Shown here piece by piece: positions 71 through 10,696 of a stretch of DNA of 25,078 nt. Position 1 is the first letter of the stretch. Every line of letters starts with the position of its first letter. Origin of the DNA: a virus. Location: the UHGV virus genome UHGV-1753993; one strand, written 5' to 3'. A program made the translations under genes and the position numbers. The notes beneath the pieces are model-generated. The model did no database searches. It saw only the letters and a program-made list of their open reading frames with translations, and was not told where the DNA came from.

Positions 71-87
71 TGTGCGTATTGCTGCCT

Positions 88-198
88 GATATATAATATG
101 TCAATAAATTTCACATACAAAAGTCTTTTCGCTTATGAAAACTACTCAACTCTGGTTTGAACGCCAGCAGTCAATCGCGGGGGGGCTCTTCGTGACAC
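88..198 (+). repeat. Family 5' module copy 1: putative promoter, leader ORF MKTTQLWFERQQSIAGG and G7 tract (179-185)
   Basis: About 110 bp nearly identical to the reverse complement of 5232-5344 and about 75 bp identical to the reverse complement of 1727-1798. Confidence 0.8.
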
Positions 199-913
199 TA
201 TTATCAGCGGCACTATCAACAAAGCAGATGGTTCACTACTTGAAGCTGCATATGCAACTATGCAAGAAGTCGAATGCTATGATGCTGACACTGGTGAATT
301 CTTAGCAGGCTCGCCTATTACAGTGCAGTCAAATGGCGTGCCAACATATAAGTTGACAATTCCTGCAAACAGGCTTGGTGCAGGTGCATTGTCAATTTGT
401 TCAGTGTATCTTGATAATGTCAGCATAAATGACTGTCTACGTTATGGCACTGGCTCCACTTTATATTGCTACGCAGGTCAAGGCGAGACACTTGATAATG
501 TCAATTTGACATGTGGTGATGCACTTGCATGCTTGCCTTGGATTCATGAAATTCATAGAGGTGATTCAGAGACAAATGAGCAACGTGTAGCAATTGTGCT
601 TGATGGCATTAAATCGTCTTGCACAGATGAAGACATTCAGCTACTTGCATCTACATTGTCGCACCCATTTGAATCATTTGGAAATGATAAAGTATTTGCA
701 GGCAAGCCTGCGTACTATGACAACTGCTTTGCTGAATGGCTAATGCTAAATGATTTTCAAGCAGGCAACATGGTCGATGCTTCTGTCACTAACTGCATTT
801 TGCTTATAGCAAATGACCCTGTAGTTGGTGTGGACATCTTGACTACTCTTGGATACATCACATCAGCGTTCACGTTCAACATGTATGACATGACAAACTG
901 GAATATGCTGTAA
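135..913 (+). CDS. Variable family protein, member 1; leader ORF (ATG 135) and body ORF (260-913 in track) offset by -1 at the G7 tract
   Basis: ATG at 135 encodes MKTTQLWFERQQSIAGG; body frame opens just upstream of the G-run as ..GGALRDT.., matching in-frame member 4595-5296 (..SIAGVALRDT..); one extra G or a -1 shift joins them; body shares CLPWIHE and AEWLMLNDF motifs with other members. Confidence 0.55.
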
Positions 914-931
914 TGAACTGCAAATGCACAC

Positions 932-963
932 AAAAAGACTCAGCAATATTGCTGAGTCTTTTT
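932..963. terminator. Bidirectional terminator: 22-nt perfect palindrome GACTCAGCAATATTGCTGAGTC flanked by A5 and T5
   Basis: Read directly; lies between convergent family genes (135-913 on + and 1790-about 1000 on -). Confidence 0.65.
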
Positions 964-1206
964 GTGTGCACTGTGACGCGCTTAATTGATGCATTCTGAG
1001 TGTAACATAGTCTGGAAATGACAGACTATTGCATGCATTGTTTAGATACTGTGTGATGTCATTTGCTGTAGGACCAGTACAGAATATCAATACATGCGAT
1101 GAATGCGCAGTGTTAATAGACTGCTGACGTAAATAGTCATTAACTTGTGCCCACTCAAGCACTGAATAGGTGCCTGAACCTGATATATCATACATTGATG
1201 CATCGC

Positions 1207-1790
1207 CTATCCATAGTGTGTTAGGGAATGCTTCGTTAATATGCGACAGCGTTTCTGCAACAGTTTGCCAGTCTGCTCGAAGTGCTGATTGTGTATTGTT
1301 TGCAATGTTATACTATACAATACTACTGCATGCATATTATCTTCATATTGTGCAGCTTCATATATCCACGGCAAGCATACAGAAGTTCCACCACACTGCA
1401 GTGATATGTCATATGAATTGCCATCGCTAACATTCGTGAGTGTGCCGCTACAGGCAGTGCCGTAATCTAATGCGCCCCATTCAGGGTCATCTGATTCAGT
1501 CTCGTGTGATACGGTAGCAAATAGTTGCAGAGCAAGTTCAGATGTGTCTGGTGACAAGCCTTTAAGCGTCATTTGAAATGTGCAATCACCTGACATGACA
1601 GGCAACATCATTGAACCAAGCAATGTGTTAGATGACATATCATATGCCTCTATGCGCAAAGGCAATGGTATATCAATGTACAGAGGCTCAGATTCACCAG
1701 CACAATAGATAGCGCAGTTAAGTGTTGTATCACGAAGAGCCCCCCCGCGATTGACTGCTGGCGTTCAAACCAGAGTTGAGTAGTTTTCAT
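1207..1790 (-). pseudogene. Variable family member 3, multiply frame-disrupted (C7 tract at 1740-1746; second frame change near 1313-1340)
   Basis: ATG at 1790 gives MKTTQLWFERQQSIAGG; body ORF 1207-1665 is in the -1 frame (..GGALRDTTLN..CLPWIYE..HAVVL); conserved C-terminal motifs (ETLSHINEAF, VLEWAQVNDY) continue in a third frame (track ORF 863-1195) that reads through the 932-963 terminator with no stop. Confidence 0.45.
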
Positions 1791-1798
1791 AAGCGAAA
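1727..1798 (-). repeat. Family 5' module copy 3 (leader + C7/G7 tract)
   Basis: Reverse complement is identical to 131-198 apart from one base after the tract. Confidence 0.8.
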
Positions 1799-1883
1799 GA
1801 GCTGTTAAAAGTTTGTGAAAATGTTTACAAATTATTTATCAACTAAGTGCAAAATCTGTAAGTATATAGTTTTAATATACATC

Positions 1884-1924
1884 AAAAAAAAAACTCCACT
1901 GAGAATTCAGTGGAGTTTTTTTTT
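1884..1924. terminator. Bidirectional intrinsic terminator: A10, 9-bp stem CTCCACTGA / TCAGTGGAG, 4-nt loop, T9
   Basis: Read directly; immediately downstream of the stop of minus-strand gene 1945-2574. Confidence 0.75.
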
Positions 1925-1944
1925 GATGCTTCTAATGACAACTG

Positions 1945-2574
1945 TCAATAAATGCCAACTATGACATGACCACCAAGTCTATTGTTGATAGCTGTGCAAA
2001 TTGCATCAGCATCTTCATATTGCAAATTTGCAAACATAATATGTTCTGGTCCAGGTGAAGTTACACTGCCACTATTCATATGCAATTGGCGCCATTGTTC
2101 AAACATTGCAATTGCATCATCTTGGTAATCAAATCCGCCAACAAGATATGCATCAGGCGCGTATTGCCTCACATATGTTGTGGTGCCAAACTCTTCACCA
2201 AGTGCTGCTGCACCATATTCATCGCAGTCACTAATTCGAATTTGATTGCCATTTGGCAAATACTTGTTAGGATTTGCAGGATAAAACCATGGTAGCACAC
2301 CCAGTTTGTTGACACATATGTCAATGTTGTTTTTTGATGCAGGCTCACCAAATGTTACCAAACATGAGCCATTGCCCATCATGACAGTGTTTTCATGCAT
2401 GCCAACAACATATTTGGTGCCTTTTGGCTCATATGTGCTGAATGTCCATAAGCCTGTTTCAGCATCTGATTGCACTTGGTTGCTAATGTAGCCATCAACT
2501 GACCACATATTGACTGCTACAGATGGAATGTGAGCAACTTGTTCTGAGTCATAATCTCTGATGTAGCCAGACAC
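1945..2574 (-). CDS. Hypothetical protein, distant homolog of the variable family (shares LPWFY and FEQWRQLHMNSG-type motifs); start uncertain
   Basis: Track ORF (209 aa; listed start is GTG). A possible leader ATG at 2645 (MQIPRNWGGG) runs into the C11/G11 tract at 2616-2626 and is -1 out of frame with the body. Confidence 0.6.
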   Translation of the reverse strand: MSGYIRDYDSEQVAHIPSVAVNMWSVDGYISNQVQSDAETGLWTFSTYEPKGTKYVVGMHENTVMMGNGSCLVTFGEPASKNNIDICVNKLGVLPWFYPANPNKYLPNGNQIRISDCDEYGAAALGEEFGTTTYVRQYAPDAYLVGGFDYQDDAIAMFEQWRQLHMNSGSVTSPGPEHIMFANLQYEDADAICTAINNRLGGHVIVGIY

Positions 2575-2615
2575 TTCTTCTACGAATGTAGGTCCAGTTT
2601 GGAGGGCTTGTTGTG

Positions 2616-2626
2616 CCCCCCCCCCC
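2616..2626. repeat. Homopolymer C11 (G11 on the minus-strand mRNA), with adjacent AGTT forming an inverted-repeat arm
   Basis: Read directly; partner arm AACTGGGGGGGG at 2914-2925. Confidence 0.9.
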
Positions 2627-2650
2627 AGTTACGAGGGATTTGCATATGAA

Positions 2651-2836
2651 TTGAGTTTTTGAAATGAGTTGAGTTTTGATGCAAGATGCAAAAACTTTTG
2701 AGTTTTGATGCAAGATGCAAAACTTTTGAGTTTTGATGCAAGATGCAAAACTTTTGAGTTTTGATGCAAGATGCAAAACAACTAAGATGTTGTTTTGATG
2801 CAAGATGCAAAACAACTAAGATGTTGTTTTGATATG
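2651..2836. repeat. Tandem direct-repeat array: 3 units of about 28 bp (TTTTGATGCAAGATGCAAAACTTTTGAG) and 2 units of 34 bp (..AAAACAACTAAGATGTTG), plus partial units
   Basis: Read directly; each unit contains the internal duplication GATGCAA-GATGCAA; no spacers, so not a CRISPR array. Confidence 0.9.
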
Positions 2837-2913
2837 TACATATGGGCAGTCAAAATATATAAACAAACAATTTAATTTTTGAAAAACTCATAAGTTTTAT
2901 GACATTCAAATTG

Positions 2914-2925
2914 AACTGGGGGGGG
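2914..2925. repeat. AACT + homopolymer G8 (2918-2925); inverted partner of 2616-2630
   Basis: Read directly. Confidence 0.85.
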
Positions 2926-3034
2926 TCACATATCTGGCTCAATCTCTTGTTATAACGTAGGTGACATTGCATTCGATGAAAAGTTTGCAGTGTTGCTTTC
3001 ATGTCACATTGCATAACTTAAAACATCGAAACAT

Positions 3035-3463
3035 ATGGCAGTTCAAACACGTTCGGTACTCAAAACGTACTTTGAAACCGGAGATAAACCCACCTCAGCA
3101 CAATTTGGCGACCTCATTGATAGTGCGTTGATGGCTCGATATATTTGGGAGACTGCATCAACTTTTGCAGCAATGGGCAGCACAGTATATATGTCAAATG
3201 CTACTGCAGCGCAAACAATAGATATGCAAGCAGTAGAACTTGGTGAAAGCTTTGTATTCAATAGAGTTGGCGAAGCAGCTGGAATTAATTTGCTGCCAAC
3301 ATTTTCTGGCAGTGGAATTTCAAGACGTTTTGCAGCTAACTATTATGATGTATCTGCAGATTCACCAGGTGTAATGTCATATGCTGTATTGATGACAAAT
3401 ATGAGTCAAGAATTGCTGACATTAAAAGTCGCTCTTATCAACCGCGCTTTATACAACAACTAG
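3035..3463 (+). CDS. Hypothetical protein with conserved N-terminus MAVQTR.VLKTYFETGDKPT.AQFGDLIDS (tandem paralog A)
   Basis: Track ORF with ATG start; N-terminal 30 aa nearly identical to 3541-3951 at protein level but diverged at DNA level. Confidence 0.7.
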   Translation: MAVQTRSVLKTYFETGDKPTSAQFGDLIDSALMARYIWETASTFAAMGSTVYMSNATAAQTIDMQAVELGESFVFNRVGEAAGINLLPTFSGSGISRRFAANYYDVSADSPGVMSYAVLMTNMSQELLTLKVALINRALYNN

Positions 3464-3540
3464 CAGACATACTTGAATGATGAAATTGTTCGAGCTTGTC
3501 TGCAATACAATAACAGACAAACTTCAAACAATTTCATACT

Positions 3541-3951
3541 ATGGCTGTACAAACAAGAAATGTTCTCAAGACATATTTCGAGACAGGCGATAAGCCAACT
3601 GCTGCTCAATTTGGTGATTTGATTGATAGCATATTTGCTGCTAAGTTTATGATGGTATCAAGTACCAGCATTAATGCTGTGCCAAATACATTGTACAGCA
3701 TTAATGCTGGTACATCTACCGTGACAATTAATGCAAATGCGCTTGAACGCGGTGAATCATTTATAGTTGACCGTGGCACTAATGCAATTTATGCAAATGC
3801 TGACGTTGACTTTGTGCACAACAACATGGTTATGTACTCAAAAGGATATGCAAATGTCAGTGCGCCGCAAGATGATTGCATAATGTCGTACACTGCATTA
3901 CTGTGTAATGACTATGTGTTGCTTGTCAATAGGGCATACTATAGCATATAG
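3541..3951 (+). CDS. Hypothetical protein, tandem paralog B of 3035-3463
   Basis: Track ORF with ATG start; shared N-terminal domain. Confidence 0.7.
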   Translation: MAVQTRNVLKTYFETGDKPTAAQFGDLIDSIFAAKFMMVSSTSINAVPNTLYSINAGTSTVTINANALERGESFIVDRGTNAIYANADVDFVHNNMVMYSKGYANVSAPQDDCIMSYTALLCNDYVLLVNRAYYSI

Positions 3952-3975
3952 ATGTCTAAAATTGCCAAACAGCAC

Positions 3976-4010
3976 AAAAAATGCTCCACTGAGATTTCTC
4001 AGTGGAGCAT
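3976..4010. terminator. Terminator hairpin (14-bp stem ATGCTCCACTGAGA / TCTCAGTGGAGCAT) with A-run on the + side (T-run for the minus-strand transcript)
   Basis: Read directly; between convergent genes 3541-3951 (+) and 4036-4559 (-); stem core CTCCACTGAG is shared with the 1884-1924 terminator. Confidence 0.65.
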
Positions 4011-4035
4011 TGCTTATATGTGATGCATCTGTCAG

Positions 4036-4559
4036 TTAGCTGACTTTCTTTGCATTCTTAAGTATGATTGACACGATATCTCCATTGTTAATTTTGACAG
4101 ATGGATTTGACATTGGCAATGTAAGCTTATCACCAACGCCTAATGGATATTGCCATGCCATAGAAGTTAACAGTATGGGATTACCACCAGGGCTTGTGTT
4201 GTTAATGTTGGCATACACATTGATGTTGTAAACGTTGCCAGTACCACGGCCATCTGCTGCATAACAGCCAAAGCCAATTTTTGCAGCAAAGTTTGAGTAG
4301 TCATAAGCTTTTGGCATCATTAACGCACCAATGGCGTAAGTTTCACCACCGCGGCATTCCATCATTTTGATAGGAAAGCCTGACGTTGGTATGTTAACTG
4401 TAACATTGTCAAGCGATATTGTACCTTGTATCGCCATTGTTTCAGTAGTGCCAAAGTTGTACAATGAAGCGTCACCAATAACAAGCTGCAGGTAGACTAA
4501 TTTAGAGCCCCCCCCGCTAGCACTTGTTGACGCTCAAACCAAAATTGTGGAGTTTTCAT
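4036..4559 (-). CDS. Variable family member 4; leader MKTPQFWFERQQVLAGG (ATG 4559) offset by -1 from the body at the C8/G8 tract (4508-4515)
   Basis: Leader frame stops 3 codons after the tract; body frame opens at the tract (SGGGSKLVYLQ..) and continues to the stop at 4036; body is G/N-rich. Confidence 0.5.
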
Positions 4560-4594
4560 ATGCTATGTGTTTGAATATTGTAAGATATGTACAC

Positions 4595-5296
4595 TTAGCC
4601 AAGTGTTGTTTTATCTGTGATGAACACATGAAATATGTCAGATAGTGTTTTCACAATTATAGCGCCCTCATATATTGGCGAAACATAAGAAGCATTAGCA
4701 ATAGACCATATGCCGACATGTGTCAATTTTGCAGATAAGCTATTGCCAACTCTAAAATTAGCAGCCAAGCTATTTGCAGCTATGTTAACTGACACATTGA
4801 CATTAGATGCTACTGATGTATTGCAAATTGTTGACAGTTTAATTGCCACTGGCAACGCAGATTCAAGCATTGCGGTGCAAATGCATGTATTGCCACTGTT
4901 AGTTATTGTTACTTCGCATGATTTGAACGCTTCAATATTGACATTTAGTGTGTTGTTAGCAATATCTGCGCCATATATAAGTGTAAATGCTGCAGATGAC
5001 CAAGACATATCTGCAGCATCAGGCGTGTCAATAAGATAAAATTGTGCGTCTTTTGTTGAGCCGACTAATTGCTTATAGTCATCACCAGTTATGTAAAATG
5101 TGATGCCATCACCATTATTGCTTGTGTACAAGCCTCTTTGAAGTGTTCGCCCTGTTTCAATACAGTGTAAATAGCAAGTTAGTCCATTAACAATGTTATC
5201 AGCATTGTCACGCACGTATATGTGCACGCCTGTGTCACGAAGAGCCACCCCCGCGATTGACTGCTGGCGTTCAAACCAGAGTTGAGTAGTTTTCAT
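4595..5296 (-). CDS. Variable family member 2, intact in-frame copy (233 aa)
   Basis: Track ORF with ATG start; leader MKTTQLWFERQQSIAG then VALRDT..; tract is GGGGGTGG (T-interrupted), giving a continuous frame. Confidence 0.75.
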   Translation of the reverse strand: MKTTQLWFERQQSIAGVALRDTGVHIYVRDNADNIVNGLTCYLHCIETGRTLQRGLYTSNNGDGITFYITGDDYKQLVGSTKDAQFYLIDTPDAADMSWSSAAFTLIYGADIANNTLNVNIEAFKSCEVTITNSGNTCICTAMLESALPVAIKLSTICNTSVASNVNVSVNIAANSLAANFRVGNSLSAKLTHVGIWSIANASYVSPIYEGAIIVKTLSDIFHVFITDKTTLG

Positions 5297-5344
5297 AAGC
5301 GAAAAGACTTTTTGTATGTGAAATTTATTGACATATTATATATC
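5232..5344 (-). repeat. Family 5' module copy 2 (promoter + leader + interrupted G tract)
   Basis: Reverse complement nearly identical to 88-198 (differences: A5 vs A4 upstream of the ATG; GGGGGTGG vs GGGGGGG). Confidence 0.85.
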
Positions 5345-5416
5345 AAATCAGTGCAAATTTGATAAATTTGTAGTACAATTATCATATATCAATATAGTAT
5401 ACAAACCTCTACAACA

Positions 5417-8816: not shown

Positions 8817-9553
8817 GCAGAGAATCAGAATTGGCTGCAGCAAATGCAATATTGGATGCTGCAGAAGTAAGTGATGCATTAGAAGTCTATAAGCAGTTTG
8901 ACCGAAGCAAACTTGACAAGACACTTGACAAGTGTTCAAAATACGTTGACGAAGTTCGCAAATTGTGCATAGCAGCAGATGTTAAGTCGCCATTTATCGA
9001 TGCTTCAATTGAGATGGAGAAGACGAACATCAATTTGCTTTGCAAACAAGTGTTTTATGCAATGCATGCACTTGATTCAGTATTCGAGCGCATTGATGCA
9101 CAAGGCGGGGGCATGGGTGAGTTTGCGTTTCTCATCAAACTGCAGAATGATGCAATGTCGTTGGTTCAGCAGTATATATCATATTGTCGAACTCTTCCCA
9201 ATGTACTTGCGTCACTCAATAATAATGTTCGAGCAACTCAAGCAGAATTGCAACAAGGCTCTGGTCAATCTGAACAACAGTCAGGCATCAATGGTGAACT
9301 CGTAACTCGTTCAATCGTTGACCTCATCAAAATTGCAGAAAAGCATAACAGCACATTTGAGCAACTCAAAGATGACAATGATGACAATCCACAGCCATTG
9401 TTTGAAGCAGATGATGAAGTTGCAAAACTGCTTGGTGATGACGTAGAACGTTACACTGATGAAAAGACTTATGCTGAAACAATGAAAGCTGAGGGCAAAG
9501 AGTTCAATGCTGAAGCTGAGTTGGCCAAGCAAGCAAAACCTGAAGTGAAATGA
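8813..9553 (+). CDS. Hypothetical acidic protein
   Basis: Track ORF 8798-9553 starts at TTG; ATG at 8813 overlaps the upstream stop (ATGA). Confidence 0.6.
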   Translation: MSRESELAAANAILDAAEVSDALEVYKQFDRSKLDKTLDKCSKYVDEVRKLCIAADVKSPFIDASIEMEKTNINLLCKQVFYAMHALDSVFERIDAQGGGMGEFAFLIKLQNDAMSLVQQYISYCRTLPNVLASLNNNVRATQAELQQGSGQSEQQSGINGELVTRSIVDLIKIAEKHNSTFEQLKDDNDDNPQPLFEADDEVAKLLGDDVERYTDEKTYAETMKAEGKEFNAEAELAKQAKPEVK

Positions 9554-9572
9554 CAGTTGTAAGTTTATATGC

Positions 9573-10696
9573 ATGAGTCGCTACAAGCAAGATACGCCAT
9601 TAACTGGCGCAGCTATTGAGAAAAGAATTGCAGAACTTGAAGCTGAAAGAGATGAATTGTTAAGGGTGACAGAGAATGTTAGATTAGGCAAACATAAGAC
9701 AGCTCATAGTGAAATTGCACGAAAGTACAACTACAAAATTGGGTGCTTAAAAAAGTATGGGTTTGAAAATGCGATGAAATGCACTGCGCTAAAAAAATCA
9801 AGCAATCAATACCAGACGTGCAAATAATGACGTTGATGCAATGATTGCAAAAATGCAAGCAACAAACTTAAAACGTTATGGCCACGCAAATGGCAATGTA
9901 GAAAAAATTACTGCAACTAAAGTACAGCGATTTGGCAATGGCTATGGCAACAAAGCAAAGGCAATTGATACCAAAAAAACGTAAATATGGCAATGCATGG
10001 GGTGACCGCTCAAAAATCTGTGCAACAAATTTAGAACGTTATGGTTATGCAAATGGCAATGTTGCTAAAATGTGTAAAACTAAACGTGCACGATGGGGCA
10101 ACGCGTTTGGCAATTTGACTTTGATTCGTGAACGTTTAGCAGACTTGTATGGCGCTGTATGCCATTTTAGCGTGCGCTCAAAGTCAAAGCCATGTTCAAA
10201 GCTTGAGTTATTTGTGCATGATAAGATATTACATGCTCTTGGCATTAACTTTGAATATTCACATTTAATAGGTGGCAGATTGTATGATTTGCGATATAAT
10301 GACATAGTTATAGAAATTAGCCCAACAATATCGCACAATAGCACGTACAGTTTTGCATATCTAAATAATAGAACACATAATAATGTGCCAATGCATACGC
10401 ATTATCATTTTGATAAGACTCAACTTGCTCTCAAACATGGCTACATATGCATAACAATTTTTGACTGGCATAACTTAAACGACGTTGTGTCAATTGTTGG
10501 TATGCATTTAGCAAAGCTATCAATAAACTCAACAGACTTCGCACTCAATCCGCAGTTGTCAGATGACAAGTCAACAATTCGCAAACACTGGTGTCATTTG
10601 AAGACAAAAGAGCATATTGAAGACTGCGGACAAGATGAGCAAGAGATGATTGACGCTGGTTATGTTGCAGTGTACGATTGCGGTCATGCAAGATAA
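9573..10696 (+). CDS. Repeat-containing protein (five or more units of about 18 aa, T-x-[KL]-x-R-[YFW]-G-x-[AG]-x-G-[NV]), interrupted by +1 frame breaks at two A7 tracts
   Basis: Track ORFs 9573-9827 and 9932-10696 plus an unlisted 9841-9984 ORF; the amino-acid repeat continues across frames 0, 1 and 2, switching at A7 9791-9797 and A7 9973-9979. Confidence 0.5.

Follow-up and report, generated by a model that had tools for sequence, protein, structure and literature searches.

How can a phage make use of genes in which a homopolymer, standing directly behind a short leader, places the larger part of the coding sequence in another reading frame? The question is raised by the first 5.3 kb of the window analysed here, a stretch of 25,078 nucleotides (nt) of the UHGV virus genome UHGV-1753993, which is part of the large genome (~175 kb) of an uncultured phage. 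In this cluster, short leader open reading frames (ORFs) run into poly-G tracts, and the long body ORF behind the tract lies in the -1 frame in four genes and in frame in a fifth. As candidate explanations the first-pass annotation of the window had offered phase-variable expression by slipped-strand mispairing, -1 ribosomal frameshifting or transcriptional slippage, and a systematic one-base undercall of the homopolymers. We consider it probable that the operative mechanism is slipped-strand phase variation at the DNA level, the tracts being contingency loci, because the frame states found among related genomes, the hypermutability of the tracts and the selection on the joined frame are most simply explained in this way.

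For the comparison, the cluster was collected from about 12 independent assemblies (L-numbers below), and for each tract the frame of the body was scored relative to the leader. Additional tract states were supplied by members of protein clusters (P-numbered forms). Three of the six matches from a pattern scan of metagenomes, L006, L008 and L010, were rejected as chance hits in unrelated sequences.

Length and frame of the poly-G tracts

Runs of G or C with a length of at least seven bases occur five times in the window, where 0.56 would be expected from independent bases and 0.013 from a first-order Markov model (Poisson P ~3e-12). Counts of G/C runs of lengths 1 to 6 are 8165, 791, 100, 7, 2 and 0, beyond which stand the five long ones, of 7, 7, 8, 8 and 11 bases. 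All five are located within positions 179-4515, and no other G/C run in the 25 kb is longer than five bases. The Markov expectation is as low as this because GG and CC are avoided about twofold (odds ratios in the whole window 0.54 and 0.49); TA and CG likewise fall below expectation, and an excess is seen for GC, CA and TG (1.67-1.75).

Four of the tracts mark a leader/body junction, at the coordinates and in the frames reported by the first-pass annotation (Table 1), and the sole long open frame beyond each of them is frame 2, that is -1, relative to the leader ATG. The G7 of members 1 and 3 was likewise confirmed in G_GGG_GGG phase (GCG GGG GGG), and a slippery heptamer of the X_XXY_YYZ type in zero-frame phase, GC G_GGG_GGG, is present in members 1, 3 and 4 of the window. 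One added G was expected to join leader and body; this agrees with the frames at all four tracts, but in member 3 a second frame break stands in the way. Members 1, 3 and 5, and weakly 4, form a real and very divergent family (31% identity between 1 and 3, 29% between 3 and 5). Gene 1945-2574, which had been counted among the family, has to be removed from it: its leader (leader B, of the type M-x4-NW) and its body are unrelated to those of the others, and only the design of the switch is common.

Comparison with the related genomes revealed that the tracts vary in length. That of member 1 is G7 (-1) in seven strains and G6 (+1) in three, and an in-frame form (G8) is represented by the protein P0026. 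The latter, 259 amino acids (aa) long (MKTTQLWFERQQSIAGGALRDTIISG...SIAGGALRDTIISG), is the in-frame product of member 1 as predicted, with the exact SIAGGALRDT junction; the 251-aa MNASSQSRGALRDT forms correspond to G6, i.e. to an OFF state. The tract of member 5 reads G5TGG, in frame, in the window, pure G7 (-1) in five strains, G6 (+1) in P0122, and G6TGG (+1) in the strain of L012-L015, the gene product of which (P0007) was found on 64 contigs. Furthermore, P0127 (233 aa, ...SIAGGALRDTGMH...) represents member 5 with a pure G8, in frame, so the AGG-ALRDT junction foreseen from the window alone has natural in-frame alleles in P0026 and P0127. Member 5 of the window had been described as in frame and unable to slip; the first part stands, but the second is too strong in view of the out-of-frame G6TGG allele on more than 60 contigs.

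Member 4 has G8 (-1) in the window, A followed by G7 (-1) in L018 and G7 (+1) in five strains, and its body is in frame behind leader B in L016 (MNITMNWGGSKLV..., P0101). Leader-B genes, comprising gene 1945 and a gene with an alternative body, were found with G9 (in frame, L001/L023), G10, G11, G12 (in frame) and G13, as well as with the T-interrupted tracts TGGTG7 and TGGTG8. An in-frame form of gene 1945, P0134 (MQIPRNWGGGAQQALQ..., three contigs), implies G12, and the OFF forms P0129/P0132 and P0140 correspond to G10 and G13, respectively. Natural in-frame alleles are thereby at hand for all four intact genes, and OFF alleles in both other frames. The consistent -1 direction, from which the first-pass annotation had argued against random decay, is uniform in this window but is not a property of the lineage, because all three frame states occur among related genomes; moreover, member 3 is decaying.

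Three pairs of sequences, the partners of which come from different assemblies or samples, allowed the tracts to be set against the remaining sequence. The window and L021 were compared over 15,130 nt with 0 mismatches, and the tract of gene 1945 is G11 in the one and G10 in the other. L019 and L020 have 0 mismatches over 8,774 nt, with a tract of G8 versus G7, and L022 and L023 have 0 mismatches over 8,506 nt, with member 1 at G7 versus G6 and the leader-B gene at G10 versus G9. The three pairs combined thus hold 0 substitutions in 32,410 nt and four single-G indels, all of them in tracts. The tracts are hypermutable relative to the rest of the genome. Phase variation by slipped-strand mispairing, as proposed for these genes at first pass, gains support from lengths that differ in both directions, from otherwise identical sequences that differ only at the tracts, and from the in-frame alleles.

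The same data bear on the possibility of a sequencing or assembly artefact, under which all true tracts would be in frame and would have been shortened by homopolymer miscalls. Contigs with the names of short-read assemblers (k119_, k127_, k141_, NODE_..._cov_), from different pipelines and cohorts, agree on G7, and four independent samples of one strain (L012-L015) have identical tract lengths; because of this agreement the lengths are to be taken as reproducible consensus features and not as noise. In favour of an artefact, homopolymers are prone to error, the longest tract is G11 in one and G10 in the other of two assemblies that represent essentially one genome, and four tracts of the window are exactly one G short; yet the deviations are not uniformly -1: G6 lacks two bases, the G7 of member 4 either lacks two or has one too many, and G10 and G13 are further cases. 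The T-interrupted allele varies as well (G5T versus G6T), and the A10 and T9 runs of a terminator at 1884-1924 present no frame problem. A systematic undercall of one base is contradicted by the lengths reproduced in L012-L015 and by G6 and the G7 of member 4, which are not one base short, and we regard an artefact of any such kind as very improbable.

Table 1. Positions in the window of the leaders, tracts, bodies, cassettes and accompanying features of the cluster.
Feature	Position	Strand	Remarks
Member 1, cassette A (conserved upstream region and leader)	87..178	+	100% identical, as an inverted repeat, to the 5248-5345 copy
Member 1, leader and tract	leader ATG 135; G7 179-185	+	leader MKTTQLWFERQQSIA; -1 state
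Member 1, body ALRDTIISG...NML, 242 codons	185..913	+	intact; 723 nt in 8/8 strains; dN/dS 0.10-0.38
Member 3, body	863..1739	-	pseudogene; extra frame break near 1308-1322
Member 3, leader and tract	leader ATG 1790; G7 1740-1746	-	leader as in member 1; -1 state
Member 3, cassette A	1747..1853	-	BLAST matches to other cassettes
Gene 1945-2574, body extended to tract, AQQALQTGPTF...	1945..2615	-	dN/dS 0.09 vs L012
Gene 1945-2574, leader and tract	leader ATG 2645; G11 2616-2626	-	leader B; -1 state
Gene 1945-2574, leader B, MQIPRNW	2627..2647	-	ATG 2645
Tandem repeat, five units of 28-34 nt	2669..2833		core TTTTGATGCAAGATGCAAAAC; divergent intergenic region between gene 1945 and the tract at 2918
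Fifth tract with leader-B-like mini-ORF of 6 codons, MTFKLNW	G8 2918-2925; mini-ORF 2899-2925	+	no long body in any frame
Tail-fibre-like gene	3035-3463	+	43% identical to its paralogue 3541-3951; N-terminal match, see text
Tail-fibre-like gene	3541-3951	+	43% identical to its paralogue 3035-3463; N-terminal match, see text
Member 4, body GSKLVYLQ...	4036..4509	-	468 nt in 6/6 strains; dN/dS 0.05-0.16
Member 4, leader and tract	leader ATG 4559; G8 4508-4515	-	leader A' MKTPQFWFERQQVLA; -1 state
Member 4, leader A'	4516..4567	-	70% identical to cassette A
Member 5, 233 aa	5296..4595; tract GGGGGTGG at 5245-5252 (plus-strand numbering)	-	in frame; GCG GGG GTG GCT
Member 5, cassette A	5248..5345	-	inverted partner of 87-183

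Selection on leaders and bodies, and the weighing of mechanisms

In members 1, 4 and 5 and in gene 1945 the length of the body is constant in every strain and no stops occur, with a synonymous divergence (dS) of 0.09-0.24 and a ratio of nonsynonymous to synonymous divergence (dN/dS) of 0.05-0.42; member 4 is the most constrained (Table 1). The bodies thereby differ from what would be left in a graveyard of frameshifted, decaying paralogues with the G-runs as sites of lesion, where neither retained length nor values well below 1 would be expected; besides, the only lesion of the intact genes is always at the tract, and in-frame alleles exist. Decay is real at one place. Member 3 carries in the window a 5-nt insertion near 1308-1322 relative to L012, in which a G4 run has independently lost 1 nt; other strains lack the gene or have another in its place. 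Member 3 is a genuine pseudogene, and these additional lesions in two strains, its absence elsewhere and the hyperplastic nature of the region are what speaks for decay. As an account of the cluster we find it hardly credible.

Selection was traced up to the tract from both sides. When member 1 is at G7, its body frame is stopped upstream of the tract and has no ATG, GTG or TTG before codon 26; on our reading of the alignment, these first 25 body codons nevertheless differ from strain to strain mainly by synonymous changes. By the same reading, member 4 has three differences in its first 15 codons beyond the tract, all of which are synonymous. On the other side, four third-position changes, all synonymous, separate leader A from leader A' within WFERQQ, with conservative replacements elsewhere. 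The leader and the sequence beyond the tract must therefore be translated, each in its own frame, which requires that an appreciable share of genomes or transcripts have them joined at the tract. Judged from these substitution patterns, selection acts on the joined products. An internal start of translation was considered and rejected, as the 25-27 codons that separate the tract from the first start in the body frame are preserved as coding sequence.

In the mechanism that we propose, the poly-G tract would slip by slipped-strand mispairing in DNA replication and would thereby turn an individual phage gene ON or OFF. Each gene would form its own transcription unit, composed of a portable cassette (upstream region, short leader ORF and G-run) and a variable orphan body, the latter being translatable only when the length of the tract sets it in frame with the leader. 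In a population, a given gene would be OFF in most genomes and ON in a minority, and up to 2^4-2^5 combinations of expressed genes would be present side by side in a lysate, which would amount to bet-hedging. An interruption of G by T, as in member 5 here, would slow the switch and hold the gene ON. Cassettes moreover recombine at the tract, by which a body can gain another leader. Inside a single clonal population the switching would be frequent and would go in both directions.

Programmed recoding would read the same sequences differently. Under it, the out-of-frame G7 would be the selected wild type, a fixed fraction of full-length product would be made through slippage of RNA polymerase, by which the mRNA gains or loses a G, or through -1 slippage of the ribosome on G_GGG_GGG, and the DNA length variants would be by-products. 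This would suit leader A, for which G7 in the correct X_XXY_YYZ phase is modal across paralogues and strains, and it would suit bodies that are under clear purifying selection though almost always out of frame in consensus genomes; transcriptional slippage could also rescue the -1 and +1 states alike. The phase, however, is not conserved: member 4, with the lowest dN/dS, has in five strains a G7 that puts the body in +1, with the -1 frame closed by TAG, member 1 has G6 in three strains, and member 5 has G6TGG on more than 60 contigs. Neither do the flanks resemble a recoding signal. Within 80 nt after any tract no stable structure was detected in comparison with shuffled sequences (z -0.4 to +1.0), a search of the window with Rfam gave 0 matches, and the sequences diverge about 14 nt past the tract. 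The zero-frame leader products are of arbitrary length (20, 46 and 56 aa) with tails that are not conserved, and in-frame DNA alleles, one of them T-locked, occur and are evidently tolerated. In bacteria, furthermore, efficient transcriptional slippage is known from long A/T runs and not from G7. The suggestion of -1 ribosomal frameshifting as a general mechanism is weakened accordingly by G6, G6TGG and the G7 of member 4, all of which give +1, and by the lack of downstream structure after the tracts. Recoding as the main route seems to us unlikely.

RNA polymerase slippage, which would be able to rescue either OFF state, may contribute, given that in-frame consensus alleles are rare and G7 is strongly modal for leader A. 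A two-tier dosage switch would combine both levels: G7 would be the selected, functional state of the whole gene family and would be read by recoding at a low fixed rate, by slippage of RNA polymerase or by -1 slippage of the ribosome in which no stimulatory structure takes part; heritable changes of DNA length would be superimposed, and the portable promoter-leader-polyG cassette would recombine onto new orphan bodies. We hold this compound scheme, too, to be unlikely.

Several points weigh against slipped-strand phase variation as set out above. The tract lengths are those of consensus assemblies, and heterogeneity within one population and reversibility are predictions of the model. Of the contigs listed for the member 1 cluster, about 1 in 77 has the gene in frame, about 9 have G6 and about 67 have the gene called from an internal ATG; the in-frame share is therefore far below the one-third expected for freely drifting lengths. 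With leader A the G7 state is strongly modal (~16 of 20 tracts), G7 is short for a fast switch, and it could itself be the functional, selected state, read by recoding. In addition, neither Pfam nor PHROG nor AlphaFold yielded a function for the products: AlphaFold2 models of members 5 and 1, with a predicted local distance difference test (pLDDT) score of 33.6 and 45.0, respectively, are too poor to interpret, that of member 5 being mostly beta-strand.

Cassettes, gene content and genomic setting

The cassette of upstream region, leader and tract is present in copies at 87-183, 1708-1798, 4511-4567 and 5248-5345. The first and the last of these make up a perfect inverted repeat of ~97 bp, which includes the promoter region, the leader and the start of the tract and encloses the cluster of 5.1 kb; the arms 127-217 and 1708-1798 are 90% complementary. 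Inversion between 87-183 and 5248-5345 was considered as an ON/OFF switch and discarded: it would flip the cluster with no state changed, because a crossover upstream of the tract keeps each tract with its own body.

Leader swapping at the tract is evident from the strains compared. The body of member 4 stands behind leader A' in most strains, behind leader A in L025 and behind leader B in L016, and leader and body meet precisely at the G-run. Owing to a deletion in L019/L020, the end of member 5 is fused with member 4's leader; the upstream region of member 4 is lost and its ATG has become ATA. The region is hyperplastic, and what lies between the cassettes depends on the strain. A different leader-B gene takes the place of member 3 and gene 1945 in L018, L019 and L001, both are missing from L017, and genes of the 3035/3541 type have a third copy in some strains (L012) and are reduced to one in others (L017). 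The ~100 bp cassette is in this way repeated beside variable orphan genes, and close relatives differ in the genes there, as is characteristic of PeSL elements.

Further genes with such tracts were noticed outside this arrangement. At 68,918-70,014 of L002 (IMGVR_UViG_3300045988_152288), far from the cluster, there is a further gene with leader A and G7, the body of which begins ALRAPDYIDVRFTLVD.... L016 (IMGVR_UViG_3300045988_152288) has at 9519-10520 (minus strand), instead of most of the cluster, a lipoprotein-like gene of 333 aa, MIKKMICIAVCAWMCASC..., with an in-frame G8 tract that encodes GGG just after the lipobox cysteine; weak, sub-threshold matches to repeats of the BNR/DUF6242 type were obtained for it.

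The fifth tract lies ~110 nt upstream of the tail-fibre-like gene 3035 and has G7, G8, G9 or G10 in different strains. A 29-codon ORF beyond it changes mostly non-synonymously, according to our reading of the alignment. The tract may be a remnant cassette, or a switch acting through the length of the promoter or 5' untranslated region of genes 3035 and 3541. In the neighbouring tandem repeat, the type of unit differs in otherwise near-identical strains (L023 versus L024); one open frame passes through the repeats, which leads at G10 to spurious gene-caller fusions of 248-289 aa.

Hairpin terminators were located between convergent gene pairs, at 3980-4011 and, as read directly from the sequence, at ~940-970 and 1884-1924; they are separate from the cassettes. 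Bidirectional terminator hairpins at 1884-1924 and 3976-4011 have a common stem core, CTCCACTGAGA...TCAGTGGAG, with flanking A/T runs (A10 and T9 at the first), and look like a repeated terminator module. A scan of the window with the sigma-70 consensus gave 16 promoter-like sites versus 20.3 in shuffled sequences, i.e. no excess.

As to the nature of the products, the switched proteins had no match in Pfam and no PHROG family at E <= 0.1, except for one spurious match of 19 residues. Among 5.8 billion protein clusters only close relatives were found, and a profile search with the alignment of members 1 and 3 against 1.84 billion representatives returned six matches, all apparent fragments of the same family, with no distant annotated relatives. 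The best Foldseek match of the member 1 model to the PDB had a meaningless E-value of 0.08. For genes 3035 and 3541, Pfam and PHROGs likewise gave nothing usable. Their N-terminal 49 residues, however, are 51% identical to the pre-Collar N-terminus of a 'phage tail protein' of Kordia with PF07484, and their N-terminal motif MAVQTR-VLKTYFETGDKPT-AQFGDLIDS heads 'phage tail protein' sequences of Flavobacteriia with a Tail Collar domain. These tail-collar-type N-termini within the cluster, together with neighbouring BACON/Ig-like repeat proteins, suggest from context that the switched products may act in host recognition or at the surface of the virion.

On the left of the window, relatives encode a Ser/Thr-rich repeat protein of 1,441 residues, a protein of 199 residues and a BACON-domain protein of 204 residues (36.2 bits against a cut-off of 25). 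The sequence 3' of 5.4 kb encodes a gp32-type single-stranded DNA binding protein, a UvsW/ResIII-type helicase and thioredoxin, as well as dCMP deaminase, a thymidylate-kinase-like protein and a C1 peptidase. The cluster of 5.3 kb is therefore placed between early/replication genes on the one side and, probably, a virion-surface module on the other.

Near-identical and related contigs of 174-181 kb originate from metagenome assemblies of the human gut (for some cohorts by record name) and from IMG/VR, and relatives of the phage are present in dozens of independent metagenome samples. The ENA contig k119_91679 (24,911 bp) represents the same genome as the window, with 0 mismatches in 15,130 aligned bases. 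In a megablast search of 50,697 phage records, the whole window had no match. The host is probably a member of the Bacteroidota of the human gut; the Bacteroidota -7 promoter motif TAnnTTTG, with 20 occurrences observed versus 25 expected, is uninformative in this respect.

Implications and comparison with known systems

Judged by sequence, the locus agrees in every testable respect with a simple-sequence-repeat contingency locus. It extends poly-G contingency switching to a widespread uncultured human-gut phage of ~175 kb, and public assemblies alone sufficed to reveal that the tracts are hypermutable, that ON and OFF alleles exist in nature and that the joined frame is under selection. Several unrelated orphan genes make use of one cassette of promoter, leader and G-run, which can be exchanged at the tract; this would provide a combinatorial repertoire next to tail-fibre-like genes. 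The four intact genes are putative candidates for roles in host range or in evasion of defence. There are practical consequences as well: the loci are mis-annotated in catalogues, since all public gene calls at them are N-terminally truncated or made from a spurious start codon, and the switch will be taken for noise by strain-level variant callers.

The internal proteins of T4 carry a conserved capsid targeting sequence on diverse bodies (PMC3012670). The present genes are similar in their short conserved N-terminal peptide, diverse bodies and variable locus in a large phage with T4-like replication genes. Moreover, the start of leader A, MKT-Q, resembles the T4 sequence MKTYQEFIAE. On this resemblance and on the design, leader A could alternatively be a virion-targeting peptide of that kind. 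Unlike in T4, the same body is also found behind the 7-residue leader B, the context is tail-fibre-like and not that of a head, and protease and head genes are absent from the window; the leader swaps argue against a strict requirement for leader A as a targeting peptide.

Frameshifting in tail assembly chaperones of the lambda G/GT type is a -1 event that yields two functional products from a heptamer conserved in sequence and phase. A slippery heptamer of the form X_XXY_YYZ and a longer product in the -1 frame are found here too, but strains differ in the phase, and the zero-frame products are arbitrary.

PeSL cassettes of T4-type phages are mobile promoter/terminator cassettes that shuffle orphan genes (PMC2839356, PMC4122927). 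The likeness consists in a conserved regulatory cassette of ~100 bp, repeated in a hyperplastic region, that flanks orphan genes and would provide recombination sites. PeSLs, however, are purely intergenic and end at the start codon, whereas the cassette of the present cluster enters the coding leader and brings a frame switch with it.

Homopolymer contingency loci with reversible frameshifts by polymerase slippage, interpreted as bet-hedging, are described from the coliphages T2/T4 (10.1101/2025.10.21.683753), and there, too, homopolymers in phage genes give rise to frameshifts by slippage. Those repeats, of at least 6 bases, are scattered over ordinary genes of every class, with tail fibres under-represented; here, in contrast, a dedicated cluster of long G-runs stands just after start codons in a genome that otherwise avoids G-runs.

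For Fletchervirus, a phage of Campylobacter, poly-G phase variation of receptor-binding proteins is established (Sorensen et al. 2021, Cell Rep 35:109214, as reported in PMC11959909, PMC10877375 and 10.1101/2025.10.21.683753). Both systems have runs of 7-11 G in phage ORFs, the length of which sets the frame, beside or in a host-recognition module, and a mixed phage population with a minority ON, the last of which is for the present phage a proposal. They differ in that no sequence relationship was found (no PHROG or Pfam match and no nucleotide match in the phage collection), that the host here is probably a gut Bacteroidota and receptor binding by the products is suggested from context, and that the tract stands here at a fixed leader/body junction of a portable cassette common to 5-6 genes.

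Among bacteria, contingency families are represented by the opa genes of Neisseria, with their CTCTT repeats, and by surface genes of Helicobacter, Haemophilus and Campylobacter with 5' poly-C/G tracts. Like opa-type families, the present cluster is a multigene system in which the copies would be separately transcribed, the repeat follows the start within a conserved 5' module and switching would be independent and combinatorial; unlike them, it is viral, its leaders are not signal peptides, and its bodies are very divergent or unrelated. The type of switch is already known from Campylobacter and T-even phages, of which this locus is a new example; what distinguishes it is an opa-like family built around an exchangeable leader cassette, in an uncultured phage of the human gut, with a strong bias to OFF in consensus genomes.

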